Source of the DNA: an uncultured Alphaproteobacteria bacterium
GTDB lineage: Bacteria; Pseudomonadota; Alphaproteobacteria; Micavibrionales; UBA2020
Direction: 5' to 3'
Assembly: GCA_966211335.1 (NCBI GenBank)
Contig: CBIHNF010000001.1
Span: 76,078 to 140,077 of the forward strand
DNA: 64,000 nucleotides
Shown: positions 18,467 through 44,430 of the stretch, in pieces
How positions within the stretch are numbered: position 1 is the stretch's first letter
How the letters are laid out: each line of letters starts with the position of its first letter
The notes under the pieces: model-generated
Told to the model about the DNA's origin: nothing
The model's database searches: none
The model's input: the letters and a program-made list of their open reading frames with translations, nothing else
Translations under genes and position numbers: made by a program

Positions 18467-18487
18467 TTTGATTCCCTTGGTTGATAG

Positions 18488-18700: not shown

Positions 18701-18717
18701 GTTTTTATTGCCATAAT
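18701..18717 (+). promoter_or_regulatory. 17-bp motif GTTTTTATTGCCATAAT, copy 1
   Basis: Identical copy at 44414-44430; both intergenic and upstream of plus-strand orphan genes. Confidence 0.6.
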
Positions 18718-18760
18718 GTTATATTCTTGCTTGTCTTTATAAATGTGAAAGGGGGTACCG

Positions 18761-19204
18761 ATGCCGTTCTTCAATGATTTCAAACGCCGCAGCGCCGGCG
18801 GCCCCTATGTCGACATGGGCACGACCGCCTGGCTCGACGACAAGGAAGAAGCCCACCGCGACGGCGACCTGCCCGCCGTCATCACCGAGAATGGCGACCG
18901 CGGCTGGTACCAGCACGGAAAACTGCACCGCATCGGCGCCCCCGCCATCGAGCATAAAGACGGCGGCTGGGAATACTTTGAAAATGACAAGCCCCACCGC
19001 TACGGCGCGCCGGCGGTTCATAAAGCCGACGGCACGGATGAATATTACCTCGAGGGCAAAAAGCTCGACGACAAAGGCATCAAAGCCATGTTCGACGAGA
19101 TCGCCCGTAAAGAAGGCATTTTAACCGGCGCCGAAGTCGTGGCCGAAATGCGCCAGGGCGCGAGCCATGCGATGAAGCCGTTGAAGACAGTTCGTTTTAA
19201 ATAG
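18761..19204 (+). CDS. Hypothetical protein with three HRxGxPA repeats and a basic C-terminal tail
   Basis: HRDGDLPAV.../HRIGAPAI.../HRYGAPAV... units of about 23 aa; ends MKPLKTVRFK. Confidence 0.8.
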   Translation: MPFFNDFKRRSAGGPYVDMGTTAWLDDKEEAHRDGDLPAVITENGDRGWYQHGKLHRIGAPAIEHKDGGWEYFENDKPHRYGAPAVHKADGTDEYYLEGKKLDDKGIKAMFDEIARKEGILTGAEVVAEMRQGASHAMKPLKTVRFK

Positions 19205-19212
19205 AAGTTGCT

Positions 19213-19893
19213 ATGAATTTTAAGAGCACCAACTTTATTTTAGTCGGGCTAACCCTTGCTGCCGTTTTCACGTTCTTCTTATTGCAATCCAGCCACCAGC
19301 CGCACGAGGTCGGGCCAAATTGGCCTGAAGGGGACAAGCTGAGATTGTTCACGACTCTCAGTTTCAGCGGCAGCCTAGAAGTGAATGACCAGCGGTTCGT
19401 TACTAAGCTCAGCAGCGGCGCATTTGATAAGGTGGTTTTTGAGGCGTGCAGTGGGCAATTTAAAAAAGACCCCAAATTCCAAGGCATTCAAATTTTTCAC
19501 ACCGATAAAGAAACGGTTTACCAAAGTCATCCCTTGAATTTAGGAATAAAATTTTCTTTAATGCCGGTAAAGACTTTAGCCTATCAAGATGGGCGCGGCG
19601 GTATTACCTATACCTTTTTACGCAGCCAAAAAGCGCTGAAGCTCTTGGAAAAACAGCAGTCAGGAAATGAACCAGAATTAGATAGCGCAGCCCCCGCAAA
19701 TAATGGGACGGAGGTTTTTGCGAGCAGTACGCTACCTGGCGACCCATGTTATCCTGATGCAGATCAATCTCCTGACGAATTTAAAAATTCGATCAAAGCC
19801 TGCATCTCGCATTACTGTAAAAATATTGCGGATGACGCCGAGCCAGCTTTAGAAAATGCCCAAAGGCTGGAACGCTCCCTTCGAGAGAAGTAA
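19213..19893 (+). CDS. AT-rich orphan protein with N-terminal membrane anchor
   Basis: 226-aa ORF, hydrophobic N-terminus, Cys-containing C-terminal part, AT-rich codons. Confidence 0.6.
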   Translation: MNFKSTNFILVGLTLAAVFTFFLLQSSHQPHEVGPNWPEGDKLRLFTTLSFSGSLEVNDQRFVTKLSSGAFDKVVFEACSGQFKKDPKFQGIQIFHTDKETVYQSHPLNLGIKFSLMPVKTLAYQDGRGGITYTFLRSQKALKLLEKQQSGNEPELDSAAPANNGTEVFASSTLPGDPCYPDADQSPDEFKNSIKACISHYCKNIADDAEPALENAQRLERSLREK

Positions 19894-20024
19894 TTCGGAC
19901 TTTTACAAGATTTACGCCGCGTTTGATTTATGTCAAAAGCCCGCAAGCCTTGATACCCCTGTCAATCCTTGTTAAGTAAAGGCCAAGTTTATCGGCGCTT
20001 TATTATTGAAGGGGCACAATCACC

Positions 20025-20966
20025 ATGAAAGCTTTCGTATTCCCGGGCCAGGGCAGCCAGTCGGTCGGCATGGGCAAGGAATTGGCCGAGGCTTTTCCGG
20101 TGGCGAAGCTGGTGTTTCAGGAAGTGGACGATGCGCTGTCGCAAAAACTTTCCAAGATGATTTTTGAAGGCCCCGATACGGAGCTGAACCTGACGGAAAA
20201 CACCCAGCCCGCGCTGATGGCCGTTTCTGTCGCCGTCGCGCGCATTCTGCAGCAGGCGAAAGCGGACCTTCTCACCCCTGCCGTCTGCAAATTCGTGGCG
20301 GGGCATTCGCTGGGCGAATATTCGGCCCTCACCGCCGCGGGTTCCTTCAACCTTGCGGATGCGGCGCGGCTTTTGAAAACGCGCGGACAGGCAATGCAGA
20401 AAGCGGTACCGGTGGGCGTCGGCGCCATGGCCGCCATTCTGGGCCTTGAAATGCCGGATGTGCAGGCGATTGTGAAAGAAGCCTCGGGCACCGATATTGT
20501 CGCCGCCGCGAATGACAATTCCTTCGGCCAGATCGTGATTTCGGGCCACAAGGCCGCCGTTGACAAAGCCATCGGCCTTGCGACCGCCAAGGGAGCTAAA
20601 CGCGCAATCCTCCTCCCCGTTTCCGCCCCGTTCCACTGCGCGCTGATGCAGCCGGCGGCGGAGGTGATGGCGAAAGCCCTTTCGGAAGTGAATATCAACG
20701 CGCCTTCCGTGCCGCTGGTTGCCAACGTGATTGCATCGGAAGTCATCGACCCCGCGCGCATCCGCCAGTTGCTGGTGGAGCAGGTGACGGGCATGGTGCG
20801 CTGGCGTGAATCCGTCCTTTACATGAAAACGCAAGGCGTGACGGAGCTGATCGAGCTGGGCGCCGGCAAAGTTTTGAACGGCCTCACCAAACGCATTGAT
20901 GGCGAGCTGACCGGTCGCGCCATTAACAGCCCGAAAGATATCGAAGAATTCGCGGCGACGCTTTAA
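20025..20966 (+). CDS. fabD: Malonyl-CoA:ACP transacylase
   Basis: FPGQGSQ, TENTQPAL, AGHSLGEY, VSAPFHC. Confidence 0.97.
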   Translation: MKAFVFPGQGSQSVGMGKELAEAFPVAKLVFQEVDDALSQKLSKMIFEGPDTELNLTENTQPALMAVSVAVARILQQAKADLLTPAVCKFVAGHSLGEYSALTAAGSFNLADAARLLKTRGQAMQKAVPVGVGAMAAILGLEMPDVQAIVKEASGTDIVAAANDNSFGQIVISGHKAAVDKAIGLATAKGAKRAILLPVSAPFHCALMQPAAEVMAKALSEVNINAPSVPLVANVIASEVIDPARIRQLLVEQVTGMVRWRESVLYMKTQGVTELIELGAGKVLNGLTKRIDGELTGRAINSPKDIEEFAATL

Positions 20967-21409
20967 TGGCGTTTTTGCTCTATGCCTTTGGCGCTTCGCT
21001 CTGCTGGGGCGTGAGCTATACGATATCGGAGCAGCTGCTGCGCAAGATTTCCGTCGCCTCCGTCATGGTGACGACATCGGTTGCGACGCTTTGCTTCGCG
21101 CTGTGCCTCGGGCTTGCCGGCAATAACTTCGCAGCGGATTTCGAGACGCTCAAGAAAACTTCCGGCGCGGGCTCCCTCGTCCTTATCTCCATCATCGTCT
21201 ATGTCGCGGCGAACTGCTTTATTCTGCTCTCGACCAAGGCGAAGAACGCGACCATGGCGGCTATGGTGGAAATCACCTATCCGCTCTTCACCGCCCTATT
21301 CGCCTGGCTGTTCTTTAAGGAAGTGCAGGTCACGGCCGGCACCGTGCTGGGTGCGCTGCTGATACTTGCGGGCGTCAGCTGTATCTATTATTTTGGCAAA
21401 AGTCTCTAA
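20966..21409 (+). CDS. EamA/DMT-family small membrane transporter
   Basis: Five hydrophobic segments, ITYPLFTALFAWLFFKE, GALLILAG; TAATG overlap with fabD. Confidence 0.8.
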   Translation: MAFLLYAFGASLCWGVSYTISEQLLRKISVASVMVTTSVATLCFALCLGLAGNNFAADFETLKKTSGAGSLVLISIIVYVAANCFILLSTKAKNATMAAMVEITYPLFTALFAWLFFKEVQVTAGTVLGALLILAGVSCIYYFGKSL

Positions 21410-21429
21410 CCCATAAGGATTAAAAAACC

Positions 21430-22167
21430 ATGTTCAATCTTTCCGGTAAAAAAGCGCTTGTCACGGGTGCCTCTGGCGGCATCGGCGGCGCGATTGCGAA
21501 GGCGCTGCATGCGCAAGGAGCCGATGTGGGCCTCTCCGGCCGGAATGTGGAGGCGCTGGAAAAGCTGGCCGCCGAAATCGGCTCCCGCTGCTTCGTGCTG
21601 CCGGGCGACCTGAATACGGCGGAAGCGGCCGATGCGCTGATCAAATCAGCGGAAGAGAAAATGGGACAGGTGGATATCCTCGTCAACAACGCGGGCCTGA
21701 CGAAAGACGGTTTGTTCATGCGCATGAAGGATGACGACTGGCAGGTGGTACAGGATGTAAACCTGACCGCGCCCTTCCGCCTGATCCGCGCTGCGATCAA
21801 AGGCATGATGAAGCGCCGCTTCGGCCGCATCATCAACATCACCTCCGTCGTTGGCGTCACGGGCAACCCCGGGCAGGCGAACTATTGCGCTTCCAAAGCG
21901 GGCATGATCGGCATGAGCAAATCCATGGCGGCGGAAGTCGCCTCCCGCGGCATCACGGTCAACTGCGTCGCCCCCGGCTTCATCGCGACCGCGATGACGG
22001 AAGCGCTGAATGACGACCAGAAAGCCAAAATCAACGCGACCATCCCCGCCGGCGCCATGGGCACGCCCGAAGACATCGCGGCTTCTTGCGTCTACCTCGC
22101 CTCCGATGAAGGCAAATACGTCACCGGCCAGACCATTCATGTGAATGGCGGCATGGCGATGATTTGA
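21430..22167 (+). CDS. fabG: 3-oxoacyl-ACP reductase
   Basis: TGASGGIG, NNAGLTKD, NYCASKAG, VAPGFI. Confidence 0.97.
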   Translation: MFNLSGKKALVTGASGGIGGAIAKALHAQGADVGLSGRNVEALEKLAAEIGSRCFVLPGDLNTAEAADALIKSAEEKMGQVDILVNNAGLTKDGLFMRMKDDDWQVVQDVNLTAPFRLIRAAIKGMMKRRFGRIINITSVVGVTGNPGQANYCASKAGMIGMSKSMAAEVASRGITVNCVAPGFIATAMTEALNDDQKAKINATIPAGAMGTPEDIAASCVYLASDEGKYVTGQTIHVNGGMAMI

Positions 22168-22532
22168 GCTCATGGGAAGTGGCAAATCGCGCAGAAAAAA
22201 TTGACGGCATTATACGAAGGTACAATCTCTTTTTTGTAATTCTCGTTCTAACTGTTTATTCGTTCTGCCTTAGTGTTTTGCCCGTGTTCTTTAACTGGGC
22301 AAAGTCGATTGGCAGTATGTTGCCACCGCCTTTTCTGTTTTTCTGCAGCACCTTTGAGATAATTGGCCGTCATCCCTTGTTTTATCTTTCGGGATGCACT
22401 GCTTATTACGTTCTTTCAGTAAAAATCCTGAAGCCCAGCACCGCGACTATTGTGAATATTGCGCTGCTCGCCGTTTTTACACTAGCACTGCTGATCCTGA
22501 GCGGGCCGTTTCCCTCTCAGCTGCATGATTGA
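22164..22532 (+). CDS. AT-rich orphan membrane protein
   Basis: TTG start overlapping the fabG TGA; about three hydrophobic segments; AT-rich. Confidence 0.5.
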   Translation: MSSWEVANRAEKIDGIIRRYNLFFVILVLTVYSFCLSVLPVFFNWAKSIGSMLPPPFLFFCSTFEIIGRHPLFYLSGCTAYYVLSVKILKPSTATIVNIALLAVFTLALLILSGPFPSQLHD

Positions 22533-22551
22533 GTGAAATTTGGGATAGATC

Positions 22552-22731
22552 TTAGTTCAGGTATCTGCGGACTTTGTCCGGCTCGGGGCCCATGAGTTCT
22601 ACCGCTTCGATAAGCTCAGGCTGGGAGACGCCGAATTCTTCCATCCAGTAGTGGACGGCGTGGGCTTCTGCGAGGGAAATCTGGCCGTGGGTGCCGGTAT
22701 AGAACGGTTGCTGGTTCATGACTTGGCTCAT
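22552..22731 (-). CDS. DUF3606-like small protein (59 aa, below the ORF-track cutoff)
   Basis: Manual translation MSQVMNQQPFYTGTHGQISLAEAHAVHYWMEEFGVSQPELIEAVELMGPEPDKVRRYLN matches the I.L.....V.YW...GVS..EL..AV...G.....VR.YL pattern. Confidence 0.8.
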   Translation of the reverse strand: MSQVMNQQPFYTGTHGQISLAEAHAVHYWMEEFGVSQPELIEAVELMGPEPDKVRRYLN

Positions 22732-22753
22732 GCGTTGTTGCCGTTACCAGACT

Positions 22754-22779
22754 AACGGGGACCCAAAACTGGCGGTTCC
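22754..22779 (-). promoter_or_regulatory. EcfG/SigT general-stress sigma promoter
   Basis: Minus strand GGAAC-N17-CGTT, about 22 nt upstream of the DUF3606-like start. Confidence 0.75.
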
Positions 22780-22864
22780 TGTAACATCCTATAGTATTGA
22801 TTAAATTGGAAAATATCAGCTCGGTCGCTCATTGTTGCAGCCTTTCATTTTGTTCCCAATTTTG

Positions 22865-22894
22865 TTGACATAACGCCAGAATCGCAATTATACT
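22865..22894 (+). promoter_or_regulatory. Near-consensus sigma70 promoter
   Basis: TTGACA-N18-TATACT. Confidence 0.65.
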
Positions 22895-23027
22895 TTGCCC
22901 TGCCGATGGTTACTCCGGCAGCGCGGTTTTGCCCCCTTTGGGGCTTATGTTTCTCGCCTGCCTCTTCAGCCCCGGTAAAACAGCCATGAACAACCCGCAA
23001 CCCTTCATAACCTTGAAAGGATGACGC

Positions 23028-23417
23028 ATGTCTGACGATACCTCGAATTTTAAATCCAATACCGGCATGGCGGAACTGGCCCTGTTCGCAGTGACCCTGT
23101 CGCTGGAAAAGCAAATGAAGGGCATCCGCGAGGCGCGCACGGTGCTGGGGGCGACCTTCGGCGCGATCGTCAACGGACAGCGTATTCTGAAGGACATCAA
23201 ATTCTGCGCGGAAGAAATGGGGCTTTCCATCCCGAAGGGGGAAGACTCCATCAAAACGCTGCAGCGACTTGTCGATGCCGCCGATGCCAGAGGCATTGAT
23301 ACCACCCGCATCAAGAAGACGATGAAGGATGTCGTGGAGATCAATCGGCAGGTGGAAGGCAGCCGCGCCGGCCCCTATAAAACCATCCAGATCGCCCGCC
23401 GCCATTTCAACGGGTAA
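23028..23417 (+). CDS. Hypothetical helical protein
   Basis: 129-aa ORF, AAGGA RBS, host-like codons; ends GPYKTIQIARRHFNG. Confidence 0.7.
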   Translation: MSDDTSNFKSNTGMAELALFAVTLSLEKQMKGIREARTVLGATFGAIVNGQRILKDIKFCAEEMGLSIPKGEDSIKTLQRLVDAADARGIDTTRIKKTMKDVVEINRQVEGSRAGPYKTIQIARRHFNG

Positions 23418-23639
23418 ATTTGTACCGAATTGAATCTAGGGCAGAATTCGGAACGGGGTGGAATTCCGCCATTCCTCGCACCAGCTTATTTCTTGACATA
23501 AGGCGCCAAAACCGCTTATGACAAGGGCAGATTGGATGTTTGCAAACATGGAAACTGTGTGATAATTACACCCTCACCTGTAAAATGCAGCGCTAGAACA
23601 TACGACCAAATATAACCTAACACCGAACGAGGAAATGCA

Positions 23640-23882
23640 ATGAGCAACGTCAACGAACGCGTCAAGAAAATCGTGGTAGAGCACCTCGGAGTCGATGGCG
23701 CAAAAGTCACCGATAACGCCAGCTTTATCGACGATCTGGGCGCAGACAGCCTCGACACCGTCGAGCTGGTCATGGCATTTGAGGAAGAATTCGGCATCGA
23801 AATTCCCGATGACGCGGCTGAAAAAATCCAGACCGTGAAAGACGCAATCTCGTTCATCCAGCAGAACGCGAAAGCCGCTTAA
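23640..23882 (+). CDS. acpP: Acyl carrier protein
   Basis: [20 protein letters not shown]. Confidence 0.98.
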
Positions 23883-23900
23883 CATCGCCTGATACATTTG

Positions 23901-23941
23901 AAAAATGGCCCCTTCTTTTTAAAAAGACCGGGGCCATTTTT
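23901..23941 (+). terminator. Intrinsic terminator or hairpin after acpP
   Basis: AAAAATGGCCCC...GGGGCCATTTTT. Confidence 0.8.
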
Positions 23942-23976
23942 CTTATCAGCCTTTTTACCAATTTTCGGAGTTTTCA

Positions 23977-25248
23977 ATGCGGCGCGTCGTCGTTACCGGC
24001 ATGGGGATTGTCAGCCCGCTCGGCCTTGGCCTCGAGCATAACTGGCAGGCACTGACCAACAGCAAATCGGGCATCAGCCAGATCCACCTGTTCGACGCCT
24101 CCGACATTCCGTCCCGCATCGCGGGCCAGGTGCCGCGCGCGTCGGAAACCGCGACCGGCCCCAACGTCCTCGACCTCAATAAATACATCGAACATAAAGA
24201 GCAGAAGAAGATGGATGACTTCATCCACTTCGGCTATGTCGCGGCGGTGGATGCCGTGGAAGATTCCGGCTGGAAGCCGATCGACCATGAAGACCAGTGC
24301 CGCACCGGCGTGCTGATCGGCTCCGGCATCGGCGGCCTCACCAATATTCAAGACACTTCCATCATGATGCAGGAAAAGGGCACGCGCCGCATATCGCCGT
24401 TCTTCATCCCCTCCTCCCTCATCAACCTGATTTCGGGTCAGGTTTCCATCCGCTACGGCTTCAAGGGGCCGAACCATGCGGTGGTCACGGCCTGCGCGAC
24501 CGGCACCCATGCGATTGGTGACGCTGCGCGCCTGATCGCTTTTGATGATGCCGATGTGATGGTGGCGGGCGGCGCGGAAGCCGCCATTTGCCGCGTCGGC
24601 GTTGCGGGCTTTGCCGCCTGCCGCGCCCTATCGACTGGTTATAACGACACGCCCGAAAAAGCATCCCGCCCGTTCGACAAAAACCGCGACGGCTTCGTGA
24701 TTGGCGAAGGCGCCGGTGTTGTGGTGCTGGAAGAATATGAGCACGCCAAGAAACGCGGCGCGAAAATTTACGCGGAAGTGATTGGCTATGGCCTGTCGGG
24801 CGATGCCTATCACGTCACATCGCCCTCCGAAGACGGCGACGGCGGTTTCCGCGCCATGAAGGCGGCGCTGAAACGCGCCAATATTTCGCCGGATCAGGTT
24901 GATTACATCAACGCGCATGGCACCTCGACCCCGCTGGGTGACGACATTGAACTTGGCGCGGTGAAGCGCATGTTTGGCGATGCGCTTAAAAAGACCAGCA
25001 TTTCCTCCACCAAATCCGCCATCGGTCACCTGCTCGGCGCGGCGGGGGCGGTGGAAGCGATCTTCAGCGTGAAGGCGATCGAGACCGGCGTTGTGCCGCC
25101 GACCTTGAACCTCGATGACCCGACCGATGTGGCGGCGGGGCTTGATCTTGTGCCGCATACCGCAAAGCAGCGCAAAGTCGATATTGCCCTCTCCAACTCC
25201 TTCGGCTTCGGCGGCACCAACGCGACGCTGATTTTCAAGAAAGTCTAA
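23977..25248 (+). CDS. fabF: Beta-ketoacyl-ACP synthase II
   Basis: VTACATG, NAHGTST, KSAIGHLLGAAG, SNSFGFGG. Confidence 0.97.
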   Translation: MRRVVVTGMGIVSPLGLGLEHNWQALTNSKSGISQIHLFDASDIPSRIAGQVPRASETATGPNVLDLNKYIEHKEQKKMDDFIHFGYVAAVDAVEDSGWKPIDHEDQCRTGVLIGSGIGGLTNIQDTSIMMQEKGTRRISPFFIPSSLINLISGQVSIRYGFKGPNHAVVTACATGTHAIGDAARLIAFDDADVMVAGGAEAAICRVGVAGFAACRALSTGYNDTPEKASRPFDKNRDGFVIGEGAGVVVLEEYEHAKKRGAKIYAEVIGYGLSGDAYHVTSPSEDGDGGFRAMKAALKRANISPDQVDYINAHGTSTPLGDDIELGAVKRMFGDALKKTSISSTKSAIGHLLGAAGAVEAIFSVKAIETGVVPPTLNLDDPTDVAAGLDLVPHTAKQRKVDIALSNSFGFGGTNATLIFKKV

Positions 25249-25251
25249 ATC

Positions 25252-26238
25252 TTGGCAAAATTCCTGAAATCGCTTTTCGCCCTGCTGCTTCTTGGCGGCA
25301 TTGGCGCGCTTATCCTTGTCTGGCTCTATGCCAATATGCAGCTGCCCAAAGACGGCCCGCTGCAAAAAGACGCGCTGGTGCTGATCGACGCTGGATCCTC
25401 CACCCAAAAAATTTCCGACACGCTGCTGGCGGCCGGCGCGATTGATACGCCCTGGTTGTTCCGCTACGGCGCCTACATGAAAAAACAGGAAGGCCCCTTA
25501 AAGGCTGGCGAATACGATATCAAAGCGCATTCCAGTATTGCCGCGATTATCGCGCAGCTGCAGTCCGGCAAAGTGTACCAGCACCAGCTGACGATTCCGG
25601 AAGGCCTTACGTCCTTCGAGATTATCACCCTCATCAACAACGCGCCTGCGATGTCGGGCGGGCTTGAAACCATTCCGGCGGAAGGCACGCTGCTGCCCGA
25701 AACCTATAACTACACATACGGCGAAAACCGCTCGACGCTCGTCAACCGCATGGCGGAGAATATGAAGAAGACGCTTGCGGCACTGTGGAAAGACCACGAC
25801 AGCGGCATCCTGCTAAAGACGCCGCAGGAAGCAGTTACCCTCGCCTCCATCGTCGAAAAAGAAACCGCACTGCCGGCGGAGCGCCCGCGCATTGCCGGCG
25901 TTTTCATGAACCGCCTCAAGGCCCCCATGCCGCTGCAGTCCGATCCCACCGTGATTTATGCGGTGACGATGGGCAAGATGAAGCTTGACCGTTCCATCAC
26001 CCGCAACGACCTTGAAATGCAGTCGCCCTATAACACCTATCAGGTCACAGGCCTGCCGCCGGGGCCGATTGCGAATCCCGGCAAGGCATCGCTCAATGCC
26101 GTCATGCATCCTGAAGCGAATCAATATTTCTTCTTCGTGGCGGACGGAACAGGCGGTCATGCCTTTGCCAAAACGAATGACGAACATGCCGCCAATGTCG
26201 CCAAATGGCGCGCGCTGATACAGCAAAAAAAGAAGTAA
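25252..26238 (+). CDS. mltG: Endolytic transglycosylase MltG
   Basis: TIPEGLT, EGTLLPETY, LASIVEKET, LQSDPTV, YNTY...GLPPGPIANPG. Confidence 0.95.
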   Translation: MAKFLKSLFALLLLGGIGALILVWLYANMQLPKDGPLQKDALVLIDAGSSTQKISDTLLAAGAIDTPWLFRYGAYMKKQEGPLKAGEYDIKAHSSIAAIIAQLQSGKVYQHQLTIPEGLTSFEIITLINNAPAMSGGLETIPAEGTLLPETYNYTYGENRSTLVNRMAENMKKTLAALWKDHDSGILLKTPQEAVTLASIVEKETALPAERPRIAGVFMNRLKAPMPLQSDPTVIYAVTMGKMKLDRSITRNDLEMQSPYNTYQVTGLPPGPIANPGKASLNAVMHPEANQYFFFVADGTGGHAFAKTNDEHAANVAKWRALIQQKKK

Positions 26239-26268
26239 TTCGGCTATATATTTAAGGTGTTAGCGGGC

Positions 26269-26283
26269 TTACCAATCCGTTAA
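26269..26283. promoter_or_regulatory. CtrA-like box with one mismatch, upstream of yqgE
   Basis: TTAC-N7-TTAA, intergenic. Confidence 0.35.
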
Positions 26284-26307
26284 GGCTTTTCTGTTAGCAT
26301 ATTCCTT

Positions 26308-26919
26308 ATGACCCAGAAGCACCGTGCCGATAGCAACCAGATCGACCCCAACCTGCTGAAGGGTGAAAGCCCGTTCCGCAACCAGCTGCTGATTGCCATG
26401 CCGGGCATGGATCAGGGTTTTTTCCACCGCAGCGTCGTCTACCTGTGCGCGCATTCCGATGCGGGGGCGATGGGCATCGTCATCAACCAAAAATTGCCCG
26501 ACATTGATTTCAAGGATTTGCTGGCGCAACTGTCATTGCCGAAATCGGAACTGCTGATGCAGCCCATCGTGCATTTCGGCGGGCCGGTGGAAACGGGCCG
26601 CGGCTTCGTGCTGCATTCGACCGATTTCATGCGCGACGACACCGTGCGCATCAACGACCGCATGGCGATTACCGGCACGATAGATATTCTGCGCGCGCTT
26701 GCCGAAGGCCGCGGGCCGGAGCGCAGCATTTTCGCGCTCGGCTATGCCGGCTGGGGGCCGGGGCAGCTGGAAGACGAACTCCGCAACAACGCCTGGCTGA
26801 CCATGCCCGCCGATGATGAAGTGATGTTTGAAACCGCGCTCGGCCGCAAATGGGACGTCGCCATGTCCCGCATCGGCGTCAGTCCGCTGACCCTGTCGAT
26901 GGACGCGGGCCACGCTTAA
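26308..26919 (+). CDS. yqgE: YqgE/AlgH family protein
   Basis: LLIAMP, GAMGIVIN, GGPVETGRGFVLH, GYAGWGPGQLEDEL. Confidence 0.93.
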   Translation: MTQKHRADSNQIDPNLLKGESPFRNQLLIAMPGMDQGFFHRSVVYLCAHSDAGAMGIVINQKLPDIDFKDLLAQLSLPKSELLMQPIVHFGGPVETGRGFVLHSTDFMRDDTVRINDRMAITGTIDILRALAEGRGPERSIFALGYAGWGPGQLEDELRNNAWLTMPADDEVMFETALGRKWDVAMSRIGVSPLTLSMDAGHA

Positions 26920-26922
26920 AGT

Positions 26923-27525
26923 TTAAAAAGCCCCTAGTGAAATAAACTCATCCGCAATCAGTGAATACATCTGGTGATCGCGCCACTGGCCGTCGATGCG
27001 GATAAATTTGCGCGCGAGGCCCTCCGGCTTGAAGCCGCAGTTGGTGAGGACTTTCTGGCTGGCGGTATTTTCCGGCAGCGTGCCGGCCTGAATGCGGTGA
27101 AGGCGCAGCGCGGAAAAGCCAAAGCCCGCCGCCAGCAGCACCGCTTCCGTCATGAAGCCCTGTCTGGTTTCCGCCTTGTCGAGCCAGTAGCCCATGGTCG
27201 CCATCTGCCCCGCGCCGCGCACGATGTTGTTGAGGGTGAGGCCGCCGATCAGCGCGTCGGTATCCTGCCGGAAGATGAAGAAGGTATAGGCAATGTCATC
27301 TTTCCAGTCTTCGAGATAGCAAGGCAGGCGCTGCATATAGCCTTCGCGTGAAATATTGACCATGGCGCCGGCGGGGCTCCAGGGTTTCAGGAAGGATTCA
27401 TTGCGGGCGCGCACGGCGACCCATGCTTTCGCATCGCCCTTTTCCGGCGCGCGCATGTAAATACGCTCGCCATTAAGGCGTTGCGGCACGGGCGGCTGGG
27501 CGGTTTTAAACAGGTTGAGAACCAT
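26923..27525 (-). CDS. rimJ: RimJ/RimL-family N-acetyltransferase
   Basis: GYWLDK...GFMTEA, LHRIQA, NTASQKVL, GFKPEG, IDGQWRDH. Confidence 0.88.
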   Translation of the reverse strand: MVLNLFKTAQPPVPQRLNGERIYMRAPEKGDAKAWVAVRARNESFLKPWSPAGAMVNISREGYMQRLPCYLEDWKDDIAYTFFIFRQDTDALIGGLTLNNIVRGAGQMATMGYWLDKAETRQGFMTEAVLLAAGFGFSALRLHRIQAGTLPENTASQKVLTNCGFKPEGLARKFIRIDGQWRDHQMYSLIADEFISLGAF

Positions 27526-27604
27526 GGTGACCTCGGCATATGCGCCTAAAAATAACTGTTATTCAGGATTATATCTTCTATATTGGGGGTCAAGAAGGGG
27601 CTTT

Positions 27605-28900: not shown

Positions 28901-28938
28901 GTCACTGCCGATAAGTCACACAGGAAAAACACGCAAAG

Positions 28939-28975
28939 AAAAACCGCGCCGGAGAAATCTCCTGGCGCGGTTTTT
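28939..28975. terminator. Bidirectional terminator
   Basis: AAAAACCGCGCC...GGCGCGGTTTTT between convergent genes. Confidence 0.85.
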
Positions 28976-29005
28976 ACTATTTCCTTCGAGATGAAGGAAA
29001 AAGGC

Positions 29006-29188: not shown

Positions 29189-29233
29189 TATTTTGTTTCC
29201 TCTAATAGTTTTGCCCCCTGTACGGAGGGCAGT

Positions 29234-29247
29234 TTACAACGTTGTAA
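29234..29247. promoter_or_regulatory. Perfect 14-bp palindrome upstream of the lipoprotein gene
   Basis: TTACAACGTTGTAA. Confidence 0.5.
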
Positions 29248-34162: not shown

Positions 34163-34180
34163 GCCGGTTACAAGACAAAC

Positions 34181-34216
34181 AAAAACTCCCGCCCTTCAAC
34201 CGGCGGGAGTTTTTTT
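34181..34216. terminator. Bidirectional terminator between rne and divL
   Basis: AAAAACTCCCGCC...GGCGGGAGTTTTTT. Confidence 0.9.
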
Positions 34217-34226
34217 ATGCGTGAAT

Positions 34227-36590: not shown

Positions 36591-36602
36591 CCGTACATGT
36601 TA

Positions 36603-36637
36603 AAACGCTTCCCTCGTGCAAAACAAGGGAAGCGTTT
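36603..36637 (-). terminator. Hairpin between ahcY and divL
   Basis: AAACGCTTCCCT...AGGGAAGCGTTT. Confidence 0.6.
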
Positions 36638-36660
36638 GATAATCGGGCATAAAACCCAAA

Positions 36661-37989
<1,329 letters not shown>

Positions 37990-38056
37990 TTTTAAGCTCC
38001 TGAAGGGATTGGGTGAATTCTGCCCTTAAAATAGGCGAAAACGCCGTAAAGTCACG

Positions 38057-38071
38057 CTAAAAGCGCTTTAA
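38057..38071. promoter_or_regulatory. CtrA-like box with one mismatch, upstream of ahcY-divL
   Basis: CTAA-N7-TTAA in the ptsI-ahcY gap. Confidence 0.4.
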
Positions 38072-38120
38072 CGCACTTCAAATTAAGCCGTTGTTTTGAA
38101 ATATAATTAGGCGCAAAGCG

Positions 38121-39863
38121 CTAAATCTTGAAGCGGTTGACCAGCTCGGTAATCCGCTGCGGCTCATACTGGTTCATGACATCCTGCGCAAGGCCTTCGG
38201 CCCGGGCAAGCGACAGGCTGCGGATATACTGCTTCACCCGCGGCAGGCTGGAAAAGCCCATGGAAAATTCGCGAAGGCCTAGGCCGATGAGCAGCGCCGT
38301 GTATTTCGGGTCCGCCCCCATTTCCCCGCAGATGCTGATGGGAATGCCGGCACGCTTTGCGGCCTCGATCGCGAATTCCATGAGGCGCAGCACGGCGGGG
38401 TTTAGCGGGTTATAGAGCGCGGCGACCTGATCATTGCCGCGGTCGATGGCGACGGTGTACTGCACAAGGTCGTTGGTGCCGAGGGCGAAAAAGTCGGAGA
38501 CTGCGGCAAGACTGTCGGCCGAGAGAGCGGCCGCCGGAATTTCAATCATGCTGCCAAGCGGCGGCATTTCGGGCGGCAGGGACACGCCCGCCTTTTTCAA
38601 ATCACGATAGCAGTCGCGCATTATTTTCCGCGCCTGATCAACCTCCCCCGCTGTCGTCACCATGGGCAGCAGGATTTTGACAGGCCCCAGCGCGCCCGCG
38701 CGCAGCATGGCGCGGAACTGGGTTTGCAGCAGGTGCGGTTCTTTCAACGACAGGCGAATGGCGCGAAGGCCCAAGGCCGGGTTATCCGCTTCCGCCAGAT
38801 ATTCGCCGACGGAGCGGGCGAGCTTGTCACCACCGATATCAAGCGTGCGGAAGGTCACGGGCTGGCCCGCCATGGCGCGGACAACTTCGGCCATTGCCGC
38901 GAACTGCTCGTCTTCATCCGGCAGCGTAGCGCGGTTCATAAACAGGAATTCGGTGCGGAACAGCCCGATGCCTGCAGCGCCCGCCTTTTTAATGCTCTCC
39001 GCCTCGCGCGGAATTTCGAGGTTGGCGCGGAGGGTGATTTCGGTGCCATCCGTCGTAATGGCGTGCTGCGCTGACAGCTGCTTTAAGGCTTCGCGGTCGG
39101 CCTGCAGCGCCTTTTGACGGTCGCGGTAGGTTGCGAGGGTTTCTTCCGTCGGCGTGAGGATAACGCGGCCCTCGATGCCGTCGACGATAATCGTCTGGCC
39201 CTGAATTTGGCTATCCATGATGGCGGGGTCGAGGCCGAGGACGGCGGGTAGGCCCAAGCTGCGCGCCATGATGGCGGTATGCCCTGCCGCGCCGCCATGC
39301 ACCGTCGCAAGGCCGATAAAACGTCGCGGGTCGAGCAGCGCGGTATCGGCCGGTGAAATTTCCTTCGCCAGCACGATGCCGCCGTTGGGCACAGTATCGA
39401 GCGACATATAGGGCAGCTTCAGGAGCGCGCGCATCAACCGGCCGCCGACGGCCTCCACATCATCGACGCGCGCCGCGATGTAATTGTCTTTCAGCAGGCG
39501 GAACTGTTCGGAAATTTCCAAGGTCGCTTGGTGCAGCGCCCATTCGGCGTTGATTTTTTCTGACGTAATCCGGCTGACAGCCCCGCGGATAAGGCGGGAG
39601 CCGGAGAGCATGGCCAGATGCGCATCCAGCAGCATGGCGACTTCTTCGGCCGCGGTATCGGGCAATTCTTCCGACTGGTGCTTCAGCTTTTGCAGCTCGG
39701 CCGTCACCTGCGCTACCGCTTCGGTAAAACGCTTCGTTTCCGATTCAACGTTGTCGATTTTATATTGCGGCGCCTTCGGGTTATCGAGCTGGACGATAAA
39801 GGCGGGGCCGATGGCGATGCCGTGGGAAACGCCTAAGCCCGTAAAACTACGCTCGACTGCCAT
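38121..39863 (-). CDS. ptsI: PTS enzyme I without a GAF domain
   Basis: GVSHGIAIG, GHTAIMARSLG, GLFRTEFL, RTLDIGGDK, GTNDLVQY, CGEMG; start set at 39863. Confidence 0.95.
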   Translation of the reverse strand: MAVERSFTGLGVSHGIAIGPAFIVQLDNPKAPQYKIDNVESETKRFTEAVAQVTAELQKLKHQSEELPDTAAEEVAMLLDAHLAMLSGSRLIRGAVSRITSEKINAEWALHQATLEISEQFRLLKDNYIAARVDDVEAVGGRLMRALLKLPYMSLDTVPNGGIVLAKEISPADTALLDPRRFIGLATVHGGAAGHTAIMARSLGLPAVLGLDPAIMDSQIQGQTIIVDGIEGRVILTPTEETLATYRDRQKALQADREALKQLSAQHAITTDGTEITLRANLEIPREAESIKKAGAAGIGLFRTEFLFMNRATLPDEDEQFAAMAEVVRAMAGQPVTFRTLDIGGDKLARSVGEYLAEADNPALGLRAIRLSLKEPHLLQTQFRAMLRAGALGPVKILLPMVTTAGEVDQARKIMRDCYRDLKKAGVSLPPEMPPLGSMIEIPAAALSADSLAAVSDFFALGTNDLVQYTVAIDRGNDQVAALYNPLNPAVLRLMEFAIEAAKRAGIPISICGEMGADPKYTALLIGLGLREFSMGFSSLPRVKQYIRSLSLARAEGLAQDVMNQYEPQRITELVNRFKI

Positions 39864-39870
39864 TACCGGT

Positions 39871-40146
39871 TTATTCTTCCTCGCCGAAGCGCTGCTCGAC
39901 AAGGGTGACGAGCTCCTGCAACGCTTCATCCGCCCCCTCGCCCACCGTCGTGATGGTAATGGAGGTGCCTTGACTGCCCGACAGCATGAGCAGGCCCATG
40001 ATGGAATCACCACCAACGTGCATATCGTCCTTCGTCACGGTGATCTGGCAGTCATAGGATTCCGCAAGGCGCACGAATTTGGCGGCGGCCCTTGCATGCA
40101 GCCCGCGCTTATTTGTGATCTGGACTGTCTTTTCCAGCGGCGGCAT
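39871..40146 (-). CDS. ptsH: HPr/NPr phosphocarrier
   Basis: GLHARAAAKF (His15) and DSIMGLLML (Ser46). Confidence 0.96.
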   Translation of the reverse strand: MPPLEKTVQITNKRGLHARAAAKFVRLAESYDCQITVTKDDMHVGGDSIMGLLMLSGSQGTSITITTVGEGADEALQELVTLVEQRFGEEE

Positions 40147-40149
40147 GGG

Positions 40150-40584
40150 TTAACCCGTCTGCAGCAGCGCGGAGGCCGCGTTGATATATTTGCGCCCCGC
40201 TTCCTGACCCGAGAGCGCCGCCTGTGACAGTGTTTCCGTCTGGCGCGCGGAGGCGAGCTTGATGAGCATCGGCAGGTTGATGCCGGCCAGCGCCTCGATC
40301 TTTTTATCCTGCGTGATCGAAATCGCGAGGTTCGACGGGGTGCCACCGAACATATCGGTCAAAACCAGCACGCCCTTGCCGCTGTCGACATCTTTCGCTT
40401 TCTGGATGATTTCGAGGCGTTTTTGCTCGAGATCGTCATCGGGCATCATGCAGACGGCGGCGATCTGCTTTTGCGGCCCCACGATGTGTTCCATGACGGA
40501 GACGAATTCATCCGCAAGGCGGCCATGCGTCACGATAACGATGCCGATGAGGCTGGCCGCGGGTTTATCTGTATCAGCTGTCAT
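40150..40584 (-). CDS. PTS EIIA, mannose type
   Basis: IGIVIVTHG, LTDMFGGTPSN, GINLPML; start 40584. Confidence 0.93.
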   Translation of the reverse strand: MTADTDKPAASLIGIVIVTHGRLADEFVSVMEHIVGPQKQIAAVCMMPDDDLEQKRLEIIQKAKDVDSGKGVLVLTDMFGGTPSNLAISITQDKKIEALAGINLPMLIKLASARQTETLSQAALSGQEAGRKYINAASALLQTG

Positions 40585-41537
40585 GCTGCTTTCCTTTTTC
40601 TTGTTTTTATCTGCTTGCGTGCTTCTTGCTTGTCCTCGGGCGCTTTCATCTGCTGCGCCGCCCATTTTTCAAGGTCGCGGTGACGAACACCGGCGGCGAC
40701 CTTTTTGCTCCCCAGCCATTTCGCCAGCGTTTCCGCTGTATAGACGGAACGGTGGCGGCCGCCGGTGCAGCCGATGGCGATGGTGAGGTAATTTTTCCCC
40801 TCCCGGTCATAGCGCGGCAGCAGGTGCTGCAGCAGGCCGGTGAGGTTTTTGAAGAAGGGCTTAAATTCGGGGTCTTTGGAAATTTTATCCATCACCGGCT
40901 TGTCGCGGCCGGACAGCGGGCGCAGTTTTGCGTCCCAGTGCGGGTTGTCGAGGAAGCGGACATCGAACACCAGATCCGCATCGCGCGGCACGCCGTTGCG
41001 AAAACCGAAGGAGGTGACGGCCACATAAAGCCCGCGGTCGCCTTCCAGCGCGAACAACCCGTCGATGAGGCGGCGGAGGTCATGCGCCTTGATGTCCGTC
41101 GTATCAATCACATGGTCGGCGGCCTTGCGCACCGGCTGCAGCAATTGGCGTTCGCGCAAGACACCATCCGCCACCGGACGGTCGACGGCGAGCGGATGCA
41201 CACGGCGCGTTTCGGTATAGCGTTGCTGCAAAACCTGATCATCGCAGTTGATGAAGACGAGCGCGGCGGAGGTATTTTTCAGCTTCTTGAGATTGTCGAT
41301 TTTTTGCAGAATTTTCGCGGCGCTGAAATCCCATGTCCGGCTGTCGATGCCGATAGCGACGGGCTGGCCGCGGCCTTCTTTTTGCGCCAGCAGCGCATCG
41401 ACAAGCGCCAGCGGCAGGTTATCCACCGCCTTGTAGCCAAGGTCTTCGAGCGATTTCAGCGCGGTTGACAGCCCCGCGCCGGAAAGGCCGGTGACGAGGA
41501 GGATTTTGCGGGGCGCGGTGCTGCGGGTTCTTTTCAT
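40581..41537 (-). CDS. rapZ: RapZ/YvcJ family protein
   Basis: VDNLP, DVRFLDNPHW, IAIGCTGGRHRSV; P-loop reads GLSGAGLS. Confidence 0.93.
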   Translation of the reverse strand: MKRTRSTAPRKILLVTGLSGAGLSTALKSLEDLGYKAVDNLPLALVDALLAQKEGRGQPVAIGIDSRTWDFSAAKILQKIDNLKKLKNTSAALVFINCDDQVLQQRYTETRRVHPLAVDRPVADGVLRERQLLQPVRKAADHVIDTTDIKAHDLRRLIDGLFALEGDRGLYVAVTSFGFRNGVPRDADLVFDVRFLDNPHWDAKLRPLSGRDKPVMDKISKDPEFKPFFKNLTGLLQHLLPRYDREGKNYLTIAIGCTGGRHRSVYTAETLAKWLGSKKVAAGVRHRDLEKWAAQQMKAPEDKQEARKQIKTRKRKAA

Positions 41538-42022
41538 CAGTTCACCAGCAGGCCCGGCTTGGCGATGATTTCCAGCGCCTTGTTGATTTTCAGCATTGTC
41601 GAATTGTCAAAGGCGCAGAGGCGGTAGCGCGGCAGGGCGACGCCGAGAATCTCGAAGGTTTCAGGGTCCGGCAGGCGCGGCACTTCATCCCGCTTCACAA
41701 GGTCAATCACAAGGCTGACGCGCGTTGCCGGCGCGACGGGGTAGCGCAACAGGCCGATGCCGCGCACCTCCAGCAGGCCGCGGATGCTTTCGACATGATC
41801 GGCGTAAATGCGGTTGTGGCGCTTTTCAAAACCGACCTGGTCATCGCAAATCAGCTGCCCGCCCGCCTCGATCAGCCGGAAGGCAAGGTCGGACTTGCCG
41901 GCGCCGGACAGGCCGCGCAGAAAAATACAAGCCGCTTCCCCGCCGACAGGGCGCAGCAGCACGGCGGTGCCATGCAGCGTCGTCTTCGTCGGTTCCGGCG
42001 GCGGTGTGCGCGTGATACCCAA
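41537..42022 (-). CDS. hprK: Short alphaproteobacterial HPr kinase/phosphorylase
   Basis: LHGTAV, GLSGAGKSDLA, LICDDQV, GLLEVRGIG; TTG start inferred. Confidence 0.88.
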   Translation of the reverse strand: MGITRTPPPEPTKTTLHGTAVLLRPVGGEAACIFLRGLSGAGKSDLAFRLIEAGGQLICDDQVGFEKRHNRIYADHVESIRGLLEVRGIGLLRYPVAPATRVSLVIDLVKRDEVPRLPDPETFEILGVALPRYRLCAFDNSTMLKINKALEIIAKPGLLVN

Positions 42023-42042
42023 GGGTTGGCCTTTAACAGGAA

Positions 42043-43401
42043 TTAAGCGGCTTCGTTGATCTTCAGGGCGTGCCCGACAAGATAGAGCGACCCTGTTATG
42101 ATTATACGCTGCGGGGCCTTGAATTGGAAGGTAAGAGCGCGGATGGCGCTTTCCAGATTGGGTGCAGGCCGCGCATCGGCAAAGCCCGCGCCTTTCAAAT
42201 AATTGCAAAGTTCATCGGCCGAGAGCATGGGCGCATCAATATTGGCGTCCACCGCCTGAATGGTGACGGGAATACCGGCTAGCTTCTCATAAAAATTGTC
42301 GGGTTCCTTGCGGCGCTTGTAGCCCGTAATGATATGCGGCGGTTTGTCCGCCCCCCAGGCCTTGACCTGCGCCATCAACACTTCCGCGCCGCTGTCGTTA
42401 TGCGCGCCGTCGACCCAGAGTTCCCAGCCGGAAGGCAGTAATTTTGCCAGCGCGCCGGACTCCAGCCGCTGCAGGCGGCCCTGCCAGCGCACGCTGTTCA
42501 TGGCTTTCGTCAGCACAGGTTCGGAAAGGCAGGTCATGAAGGGGCTTTGCGCAATTGCGGCAATGGCCGTGCCCGCGTTGACGACTTGGTGACTACCCAA
42601 GAGGCGCGGCAGCGGCAGGCTGAATTCCATGCCGCGGGCGCGATAGATGAAACCCTTGTCGTCTTCTTCAACCGACCATTCACGGTTGGCAAGAAACATC
42701 GGCGCATGCAGTGCGGCGGCGCGGGTTTCAAAAATTTTCAAGACGTCATTATCCGTCTGCGGCGCGACGATAACGGGGCAGTTTTGCTTGATGATGCCAG
42801 CCTTGTTTTCGGCAATCAGCGGCAGGGTTGCGCCCAAGAGGCGCATGTGGTCGAAAGAAATACGCGTCAGCAGGCTGATGCTTTTTTCAACCACGTTGGT
42901 CGCGTCATAGGTGCCGCCAAGGCCGGTTTCCAGCAGCACGGCATCCGCCTTGTGGCGTTGGAAAGCGAGGAAGGTAAGTGCGGTGAAGAATTCGAAGAAG
43001 GATACGGGTTCATCCCCGCCTGCCGCTTCACATTCATCAATCAGCGAGAGCAGCAAATCATCGGAGATTTCCTTGCCGCCGATGACGATGCGTTCTTCAA
43101 ACCGCACCAGATGCGGGGAAATGAATTTATGGACAGTGAGTCCCGCTGATTCCAGAATGGCCTGAATAAAGGCGAGGGAGGAGCCCTTGCCATTGGTGCC
43201 CGCCACATGAAAAACCGGCTGCAAATGGAGGTGTGGATTGCCAAGGTTTTCGAGGAAATTCTGGAAGCGTGACAGCCCCGCCGGCAGCATGGGTTCATGC
43301 TTTTCGCGCACAGCAGTAATTGCGTTTTCAACCGCAGGATTGGGCGAATAGGTATATTCGGTTAAGGGCGCTTGCTCGGCGATTTTCAGCGGCTCGGGCA
43401 T
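42043..43401 (-). CDS. folC: Folylpolyglutamate/dihydrofolate synthase
   Basis: VAGTNGKGS, SPHLVRFEERI, ETGLGG, WQGRLQ, DGAHN. Confidence 0.96.
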   Translation of the reverse strand: MPEPLKIAEQAPLTEYTYSPNPAVENAITAVREKHEPMLPAGLSRFQNFLENLGNPHLHLQPVFHVAGTNGKGSSLAFIQAILESAGLTVHKFISPHLVRFEERIVIGGKEISDDLLLSLIDECEAAGGDEPVSFFEFFTALTFLAFQRHKADAVLLETGLGGTYDATNVVEKSISLLTRISFDHMRLLGATLPLIAENKAGIIKQNCPVIVAPQTDNDVLKIFETRAAALHAPMFLANREWSVEEDDKGFIYRARGMEFSLPLPRLLGSHQVVNAGTAIAAIAQSPFMTCLSEPVLTKAMNSVRWQGRLQRLESGALAKLLPSGWELWVDGAHNDSGAEVLMAQVKAWGADKPPHIITGYKRRKEPDNFYEKLAGIPVTIQAVDANIDAPMLSADELCNYLKGAGFADARPAPNLESAIRALTFQFKAPQRIIITGSLYLVGHALKINEAA

Positions 43402-43419
43402 TGAAAATCCTTTGCGACG

Positions 43420-44328
43420 TCAGCCTTCGCCTTTTTTGCGGGCATCAGGTGGGCGTTTGTGTTCCGCCATGCCGCTGCGCTTTTGCGTCAGCAGCTGCAG
43501 GATGGTGACAAGCTTCTGGCGCAAATCACCGCGCGGTACGACAAGATCCACCATGCCATGCGCCTGCAGGTATTCCGCCGTCTGGAAGCCTTCTGGCAGC
43601 TGGGCGCGGATGGTTTCCTGAATGACGCGGCGACCGGCAAAGCCGATCTGCGCGCCGGGTTCGGCAATATGCAGGTCGCCAAGCATCGCGAAAGAGGCGG
43701 AAACGCCGCCGGTGGTTGGGTCGGTCAGCAGCACAATATAGGGCAGGCCCGCTTCCTTCACCTGTTCGACCGCGATGACGGAGCGCGGCATCTGCATCAG
43801 GGAAATCATACCCTCCTGCATGCGCGCGCCGCCCGAAGCAGGGATGACGATATAGGGCGCTTTGAGGGAGACAGCGAGGCGCGCGCCGGTGATCAAACCG
43901 TCACCCACCGCCGCACCCATGGAGCCGCCCATGAAGTCGAAATTGAAAGCAGCGATGACGACGGGCGATCCGCCCATCAACCCGTTGGCCACAACAATCG
44001 CGTCCTTCTTGCCGGTTTCGGTCTGGGCGTCCTTCAGGCGGTCGGCGTATTTTTTGCGGTCGCGGAATTTGAGCGGGTCATGCACGGGTTTCGGCAAATC
44101 GGATTCTGTATAGATGCCGGAATCAAACAGCATCTTCAGCCGCTCCTCCACGCTCATGCGCAGGTGGTAGCCGCAGTGGTGGCAGACGTTGAGGTTCTTC
44201 ACCAGTTCCTGGTGGTGCAGCATGGTCTCGCAGCCGGGGCACTTCTGCCAGAGGTTGTCGGGGACATCCTTCTTGGCGGTGATGAGGGCCTTGATCTTGG
44301 GCCGGACGAAGTTCGTAATCCAGTTCAT
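43420..44328 (-). CDS. accD: Acetyl-CoA carboxylase carboxyltransferase beta subunit
   Basis: CPGC...CHHC zinc finger, FMGGSMG, SGGARMQEG, IGFAGRRV. Confidence 0.97.
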   Translation of the reverse strand: MNWITNFVRPKIKALITAKKDVPDNLWQKCPGCETMLHHQELVKNLNVCHHCGYHLRMSVEERLKMLFDSGIYTESDLPKPVHDPLKFRDRKKYADRLKDAQTETGKKDAIVVANGLMGGSPVVIAAFNFDFMGGSMGAAVGDGLITGARLAVSLKAPYIVIPASGGARMQEGMISLMQMPRSVIAVEQVKEAGLPYIVLLTDPTTGGVSASFAMLGDLHIAEPGAQIGFAGRRVIQETIRAQLPEGFQTAEYLQAHGMVDLVVPRGDLRQKLVTILQLLTQKRSGMAEHKRPPDARKKGEG

Positions 44329-44413
44329 GCGCGGGGTCTGTCCTTGTGAGGAAAAGCCGTTTCAGAAGGGCAATTTCTAACATAAGGGGGGCTTGTTGCG
44401 GCAGAAAATATTG

Positions 44414-44430
44414 GTTTTTATTGCCATAAT
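44414..44430 (+). promoter_or_regulatory. 17-bp motif GTTTTTATTGCCATAAT, copy 2
   Basis: Identical to 18701-18717; 11 nt upstream of TTGACA-N17-TACAAA (44442-44470). Confidence 0.6.

Follow-up and report, generated by a model that had tools for sequence, protein, structure and literature searches.

A 17-mer shared by the upstream regions of two tail-bearing loci of an uncultured alphaproteobacterium lies in conserved promoter regions and is probably not a regulon tag

We analysed a stretch of 64,000 nucleotides (the window) from an uncultured, Micavibrio-like alphaproteobacterium, C1:76078-140077 of genome G000, which comprises 3.07 Mb in six contigs at 57.5% G+C. A scan of the window located the 17-mer GTTTTTATTGCCATAAT exactly at 18701-18717 (+) and 44414-44430 (+), in the sense orientation before a gene of HRxGxPA (MORN-like) repeats and before an ankyrin locus, both of which encode a C-terminal tail (KPLKTVRFK and RPLKPVKFKPPGH, respectively). 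These observations agree with the original prediction, which had taken the identity as a sign of a common regulator or promoter class and as independent support for treating the tail-bearing genes as one system. Conservation in related genomes indicates that both 17-mer sites are promoter-region elements under purifying selection, and because of that selection we regard both as functional. By contrast, the signal that characterizes the tail and ankyrin genes as a set (putative Dot/Icm substrates) is an oriented -35 box, TTGACATA(A), and not the 17-mer. We think it probable that the two 17-mers represent a lineage-specific promoter-region word that occurs independently in each of two conserved control regions, and not a regulon tag. 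Feature coordinates are collected in Table 1.

We retrieved the region upstream of rpsF, the divergent neighbour at site 1, from all 15 genomes of the genus, and aligned the 13 that keep the MORN-like gene. The columns invariant in these 13 species are TTG, TT..CATAAT and T-A-n-n-n-T, with variable flanks. The best reading of site 1 is a sigma70-type promoter, TTGTTT-N17-TATTCT: the alignment displays a TTGnnn hexamer, a spacer of 16-18 nt and TAnnnT, conserved in orthologues, and within the putative -10 element the critical T-12, A-11 and T-7 are invariant while the other positions vary. The 17-mer ends 43 nt before the ATG at 18761, and the conserved TTGCCATAAT constitutes an extra element within the promoter spacer. 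Reading TTGCCA as the -35 element was rejected, as no -10 element lies 16-18 nt from it at either site or in any orthologue; 17 nt past it stand TGTCTT at site 1 and GACATA at site 2. An extended -10 element at site 1 (TGcCATAAT) is likewise disfavoured by distances to the start codon, for which the genome-wide medians are 56-62 nt for CATAAT and TGnCATAAT, similar to -35 boxes, versus 38 nt for TATAAT. A T directly follows the core word of the 17-mer, TTGCCATAA, in only 16 of 56 copies. An intrinsic terminator was also rejected at site 1, where the weak 6-pair stem at 18682-18700 is not conserved and no + strand gene lies upstream. For rpsF itself we infer the promoter TTGTAC-N18-TATAAC at 18617-18588 (-), whose TATA[AT]C block is conserved in the genus.

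At site 2, two conserved boxes emerged when the accD upstream regions of 15 genomes were compared. The 17-mer copy (box A) is conserved as ATT..CATAA in 12 species. In the same number of species the sigma70-type element downstream of it (box B) is invariant, and the -10 element in the orthologues has the form TAnnAA (TACCAA, TAAAAA, TAGATA, TATGAA). Judged by this conservation, box B is the putative promoter of the ankyrin locus, TTGACATAA-N14-TACAAA, and a true member of the promoter class of this lineage; a strict promoter scan did not call its -10 element because TACAAA lacks the usual final T. The 17-mer ends 60 nt before the TTG at 44491 and 81 nt before the conserved ATG at 44512. Three genomes without an ankyrin gene at this place (L032, L033, L035) still have a box related to box A, and its distance from accD is unchanged; because the box persists in them, box A may belong to the accD side.

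The identity of the two sites with each other is a separate matter from the conservation of each. Sites 1 and 2 match at 17/17 positions in G000 and at 15/17 in its nearest relative, G004. Elsewhere the values are 12, 12, 11, 10, 9, 9, 8 and 8 (G009, G010, G002, G007, G011, G013, G001 and G005, counted by hand from the alignments, except for a scripted count in G009), which overlap the background mean of 8.46 given below. The alignments thus indicate that the perfect identity is peculiar to this lineage and not conserved. The distant loci L001-L012 gave no consistent picture. A third tail-bearing gene in the window had been thought to carry a partial copy of the 17-mer; the string in question, GCATAATGTT, is present at 47027-47036, and comparison with orthologues identifies it as the putative -10 box of that gene, not homologous to the 17-mer. 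The orthologous promoters read TTGCAT-N17-TATGAT, TTGCAA-N17-TATAGT and TTGATA-N17-CATACT. A box 12 nt before the -35 element of this gene is conserved as ATTACCATAAT in six relatives and as TTTACATAAT in two, and is degenerate in G000 (TTTACATATT).

We then turned to the behaviour of the core word TTGCCATAA across the genome. In G000 it is present in 46 intergenic copies versus 3.3 expected and 3 for the reversed control, a 14-fold excess; counted over whole genomes, the excess falls to a modest 2-4 fold and is found in the genus only. A -10 element (TAnnnT) stands 16-18 nt after only 4 of the 46 copies, versus 38 of 61 for TTGACATAA. The word displays no orientation preference (7 sense-only versus 13 antisense-only occurrences) and, genome-wide, no fixed position relative to promoters. 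Twenty-six of the 46 copies lie in divergent regions, and 39 of the 46 face a gene start in reverse orientation at a median distance of ~78 nt by our own count. In our reading of their N-termini, most of the genes so faced resemble housekeeping enzymes, among them leuA, dxs, peroxiredoxin, gdh, gpmA, ppc and accD.

Upstream of tail or ankyrin genes, TTGCCATAA is found at 3/62 genes versus 27/1488 others (p=0.12), and matched controls reach this count in 688 of 5000 draws; the logistic odds ratio is 3.7. The genome-wide enrichment expected from the original prediction is therefore not significant for the 17-mer core. The 17-mer itself is found at only 2 of ~28 tail-gene promoters, the others being without the box, and its position relative to the core promoter differs between the two loci. 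It does not belong to the TTGACATAAY class of box B either: it carries C for A at hexamer position 4, its core is not the TTGACATAA word, and it has neither a -10 element nor a strict orientation. The 17-mer should therefore lend no independent weight to treating the three window genes as a group.

The class to which box B belongs has a different profile. In G000, TTGACATAA occurs 77 times, with 62 intergenic copies versus 3.5 expected and ~3 for the reversed control. Among the 61 intergenic copies analysed, it is the best -35 element locally in 54, and TAnnnT follows at 16-18 nt in 62%; 32 occurrences are sense-only versus 2 antisense-only, and the median distance to the start codon is 59 nt. 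TAA follows the hexamer in 42% of TTGACA promoters versus 0-12% after other -35 variants. A general sigma70 preference for TAA past the -35 hexamer was rejected, as it was not seen with those other variants or in tRNA promoters (0/6 after TTGACA, our own count), notwithstanding an rRNA promoter that reads TTGACTTAA. Within the genus a genome holds 59-224 copies, and genomes from the family's other genera hold 27-85, with 1-12 for the reversed control, and the ratio to control in other orders of the class is ~1-3. By these counts, TTGACATA(A) is an oriented -35-type element amplified in this family only. Near-matches in 40 relatives were dominated by nTTTTTATTGACATAAT.

Around 92 TTGACATA sites, no second box was enriched at any offset, including -10/-11 and -21/-22, and boxes 21 bp apart were found at site 2 only. 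Because class promoters lack a periodic second box, a tandem site of the PmrA/PhoB type is unlikely. For the same reason we rejected a response-regulator array (PhoB/OmpR-like) at site 2, where TGCCAT, TGCCAT and TGACAT follow one another at steps of 10-11 bp. A dedicated alternative sigma factor was rejected as well: BLAST with an RpoD fragment returned only RpoD and one RpoH, the latter with an RpoH box (SQKSLFFNLRRLR), in a search that did not extend to extracytoplasmic function (ECF) sigma factors. The RpoH-type gene, at C4:60647-61546 on the 196-kb contig C4, adjoins an ankyrin/tail gene with a TTGACATAA promoter (C4:59479).

To define the tail genes, we built a position weight matrix (PWM) from 19 strict tails and applied a cut-off score of >=8, which gave 43 C-terminal matches and 0 at internal control positions. 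The tail, of the form [KR]P[LIVM][KR][TP]V[RKT]F[K..P], ends at least 43 proteins of G000. Pfam Ank_2 identified 79 ankyrin genes, among them 20 of the 43 tail genes. When k-mers upstream of tail genes were compared, without bias, with those upstream of all others, TTGACATA ranked first (8/28 versus 72/1522, p=5e-5). It precedes 14/48 ankyrin genes versus 65/1502 others (odds ratio 9.1, p=3e-8) and 16/62 tail or ankyrin genes versus 2.7 expected, a count reached in 0 of 5000 simulations with controls matched on AT content and length (logistic odds ratio 8.1). These matched controls and the logistic regression rule out AT-richness or intergenic length as a confounder, and TTGACA without a following TA, TTGAC[CGT] and the reverse complement all gave null associations. 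Overall, the odds ratios of TTGACATA with tail and ankyrin genes were 7-9. Tail genes outside the ankyrin set contribute only 2/14. Of the 52 proteins encoded downstream of TTGACATAA, 12 are ankyrin proteins and ~11 have other domains (such as ACP, Hsp70 and PPK2); Pfam gave no match for the remainder. The link between TTGACATA and ankyrin genes replicates in a second species, G001, where Ank_2 is encoded within 800 nt downstream on the same strand at 10 of 100 TTGACATAA sites, versus 2 with the strand flipped and a mean of 1.27 (maximum 7 in 2000 runs) at random positions. The supposed common promoter class thus exists for the tail and ankyrin genes; the 17-mer is not its motif.

How surprising, then, is the 17-mer match itself? 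The genome holds just the 2 exact copies, and the next best match has 2 mismatches; within the window, no further match was found with up to 3 mismatches, and none of 100 shuffles contained two or more copies. Each copy has a divergent intergenic setting, rpsF<>MORN-like gene for the first and accD<>ankyrin locus for the second, and no common sequence was found in their flanks. The match is nonetheless less unusual than it looks, because exact repeats of 16-20 nt occur elsewhere in the window (a 17-nt direct repeat at 16733/41569 and a 20-nt perfect inverted repeat at 49995/63861, both plainly due to chance), 48 pairs of intergenic segments genome-wide have exactly one 17-mer in common, and the sub-words of the 17-mer occur at, not above, maximal-order Markov expectation. 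Further, when intergenic 17-mers anchored on CATAAY were compared in 122,265 pairs, 3 pairs were identical at 17/17 positions, 0.05% at 15/17 or more and 11% at 11 or more, with a mean identity of 8.46. Identity between two promoters chosen beforehand is unusual (~1e-4 to 1e-3) and only partly informative, being neither overwhelming nor decisive.

For each of three more tail-gene upstream regions, an exact 17-mer recurs in an intergenic region unrelated to it (TTAAGCCGTTGATAAAA, CAGCAAATTTAATTGCC, AAGCGCTGGTTTTTAAT). Counting sites 1 and 2 as well, five of ~12 tail-gene upstream segments take part in such short matches, which looks like more than expected. Other readings of the 17-mer were rejected: a dispersed repeat, repetitive extragenic palindromic (REP) sequence or mobile element, by the unrelated flanks and the mere 2 genome copies; a known RNA family, by Rfam searches that gave a sub-threshold CrcZ hit at site 1 (14.8 bits versus a threshold of 95) and no match at site 2; and a sigma54 promoter, by a GG-N10-GC spacing that, read by hand, misfits at both sites.

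In the explanation that we prefer, the word would be TT[G/A][C/A]CATAAY preceded by a T-run, and each 17-mer would lie in a control region common to a housekeeping gene and a divergent effector-like gene. At site 1, the word would stand within the spacer of the sigma70-type promoter; at site 2, two helical turns upstream of the ankyrin promoter, where it may equally serve the accD side. The 17/17 identity would have arisen in the G000/G004 lineage by coincidence or by convergence, and would not mark a dedicated recognition site of tail genes. Because BLAST found only RpoD and RpoH, RpoD is the presumed driver of these promoters, and something lineage-specific would read the TAA. The box could act as a secondary docking site for the reader of the TTGACATAAY box, whether RpoD holoenzyme or an adjacent factor; the role of the box would be to tune the core promoters nearby, and not to mark out a regulon. 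As for the TTGCCATAAT boxes, they might be secondary sites for this reader, or else a separate factor might use them as operators. A bolder version, for which we would give only modest odds, has one lineage-specific DNA-binding factor or sigma-associated subunit read TT[G/A][A/C]CATAAY, activating from the -35 position a dispersed regulon of 60-220 promoters, many of them for ankyrin and tail-bearing Dot/Icm substrates, and modulating or repressing where the box, as in the 17-mer, is a TTGCCATAAT variant located in a spacer or upstream. If this were true, one binder would be common to the 17-mer and TTGACATAAT, and the effector repertoire of an uncultured predator/symbiont lineage would be predictable from DNA alone.

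Several points weigh against our explanation. The empirical chance of a 17/17 match is only ~2.5e-5 per anchored pair, and identity this rare leaves room for lineage-level selection for a common site. All three window loci have ATT[GA]CCATAA[TCA] in several relatives, which hints at a real common element. Plain promoters do not usually carry a conserved 10-bp box in the spacer, and such a box fits an operator. The site 1 promoter and box B both went uncalled in the strict scan, all promoter assignments draw on consensus and conservation, and the gene calls behind the statistics are crude.

Some of these points lead to a dedicated regulator, for which the 17-mer or its ATT[GA]CCATAAY core would be the operator of a transcription factor co-regulating tail-bearing effector genes. 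Such a factor would account for a box at all three window loci (ATTGCCATAAT, ATTACCATAA[CA] and ATTACCATAAT in G002, G007, G010 and G011) and for the near-palindrome TATTGCCATA, which with the upstream TA is symmetric at 8/10 positions. It would also suit the distances from box start to -10 start, which by our own counts are 13, 35 and 44 bp versus 23 bp in class promoters and thus fall on roughly one helical face, and the logistic odds ratio of TTGCCATAA points the same way. We nevertheless consider it unlikely: TTGCCATAA is not significantly enriched at effector-like genes, the other tail-gene promoters lack the box, the palindrome is extended in only 15/46 sites, the word keeps no fixed position to promoters genome-wide, and the identity between sites 1 and 2 falls to background in relatives.

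Alternatively, the box could act in reverse (TTATGGCAAT) and serve accD and rpsF, the divergent housekeeping genes, in which case its place before tail genes would be incidental. The persistence of box A at the same distance from accD where the ankyrin gene is absent speaks for this, as does TTTTACATAAC upstream of rpsF, which is kept in G008 (L048), a genome without the MORN-like gene; so does the tendency of TTGCCATAA to face mostly housekeeping-like gene starts in reverse. We are doubtful of it all the same, since the antisense excess is not significant, the site 1 box is ~240 nt away from where rpsF starts and precedes the best candidate for an rpsF promoter by ~95 nt, and TTATGG resembles neither a -35 nor a -10 element and was found with no partner element. 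Pure chance, in which two unrelated, functionless AT-rich stretches happen to be identical, would accord with the other exact repeats in the window, the 48 intergenic pairs and the Markov expectation. It is largely refuted by the conservation of both sites, which are the best-conserved blocks of their intergenic regions in 12-13 species, and the intergenic over-representation of TTGCCATAA also opposes it; we hold it to be very improbable.

In kind, the closest known counterpart is an ordinary alphaproteobacterial RpoD (sigma70) promoter: TTGnnn-N17-TAnnn[T/A], conserved across species, is seen at both sites and at the third gene. The present promoters differ in the coupling of TAA to TTGACA and in the box of the 17-mer, which is off the -35 position at both loci. 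The closest published parallel is provided by the Legionella Dot/Icm effector regulators, of which PmrAB activates ~40 effector genes and CpxRA regulates ~30 (PMC6989116). As in the PmrA and CpxR regulons of Legionella and Coxiella, a short cis-element recurs before some of the putative type IVB effector genes (ankyrin or tail proteins), and DotH/IcmK is encoded in the same genome (C1:500483-501196, E=2e-70); unlike in those regulons, the element is a single 9-bp box at -35 and not a tandem direct repeat at helical spacing of the kind bound by a winged-helix response regulator. Enrichment at effector-type genes, a feature of an effector regulon, was found for TTGACATA and not for the 17-mer core. 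The lineage is known only as epibiotic predators, and the effector lists of Legionella and Coxiella were first expanded by means of a common promoter element. A cis-element that marks part of the tail/ankyrin set would be useful in the way that such elements were in those effector searches; the informative motif here is TTGACATA(A) and not the 17-mer, and it raises the question of what reads the TAA beside the -35 hexamer in this family.

Table 1. Features at the two 17-mer sites and the third tail gene, with related loci elsewhere in the genome. Positions without a contig label refer to the window.
Feature	Position	Strand	Remarks
17-mer copy 1, GTTTTTATTGCCATAAT	18701-18717	+	from G of the -35 hexamer through 13 spacer nt of the putative MORN-like gene promoter
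Candidate -35 TTGTTT, MORN-like gene	18699-18704	+	TTG invariant in 13 orthologous regions, 17 nt (18 in one) before TAnnnT
Candidate -10 TATTCT	18722-18727	+	T, A and last T invariant in 13 species; ends 33 nt before ATG 18761
HRxGxPA (MORN-like) repeat gene	18761-19204	+	147 amino acids; tail KPLKTVRFK, tail PWM score 34.4
rpsF (ribosomal protein S6)	17972-18470	-	divergent neighbour of site 1
17-mer copy 2 (box A)	44414-44430	+	TTGCCA starts 21 bp upstream of the putative ankyrin -35 and 92 nt from the accD start
TTGACATAA (box B)	44442-44450	+	putative -35 hexamer + TAA; TTGAC[AG]TAA invariant in 12 species
Candidate -10 TACAAA	44465-44470	+	17 nt past TTGACA; no usual final T
Ankyrin locus	44491-45391	+	tail RPLKPVKFKPPGH; two overlapping frames, 44491/44512-44772 and 44714-45391
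accD	43420-44328	-	divergent neighbour of site 2
Candidate third gene promoter	47005-47033	+	TTGCTA (47005-47010), 17 nt, CATAAT (47028-47033); promoter-scan call and orthologues
Degenerate box TTTACATATT	46993-47002	+	12 nt upstream of the third gene's -35
Third tail-bearing ankyrin gene	47087-47920	+	tail KPIKTVRFAAKPP
TTAAGCCGTTGATAAAA region pair	C1:427974-428211 vs 334213-334390		
CAGCAAATTTAATTGCC region pair	C1:776650-776740 vs 712960-713125		
AAGCGCTGGTTTTTAAT region pair	C3:11034-11127 vs C1:908197-908481		
Example tail genes	C1:461904-462596, 582967-583599, 1051789-1054479; C3:9871-11034		
Orphan family members	C1:644900-646309, 646542-647807, 713126-713995, 1654362-1655015; C5:26799-27938		

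The ankyrin locus at site 2 is split, its second frame (44714-45391) lying in +1. The same two-frame split is seen in the nearest relative G004 (L022 2799-3482), and the orthologous place in G001 holds one open frame of 328 amino acids. The split could be a common frameshift, a pseudogene, two genes or a case of recoding. Elsewhere in the genome, a cluster of ankyrin genes (C1:483-497 kb) adjoins dotH/icmK.

At site 1, an open reading frame of 226 amino acids (19213-19893, +), which the crude gene finder did not call, directly follows the MORN-like gene; it has a signal-peptide-like N-terminus and lies in a stretch of low G+C content (47% versus 57.5%). The rpsF product (17972-18470, -) ends in GGFRGGDR-type repeats (RGG-like), which are unusual for a bacterial S6. 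Finally, the genome encodes a paralogous orphan family with the N-terminus F-x-D-T-x-L-P...[KR]AF and Pro/Lys-rich ends, most members of which lie behind boxes of the TTG[AC]CATAA type.

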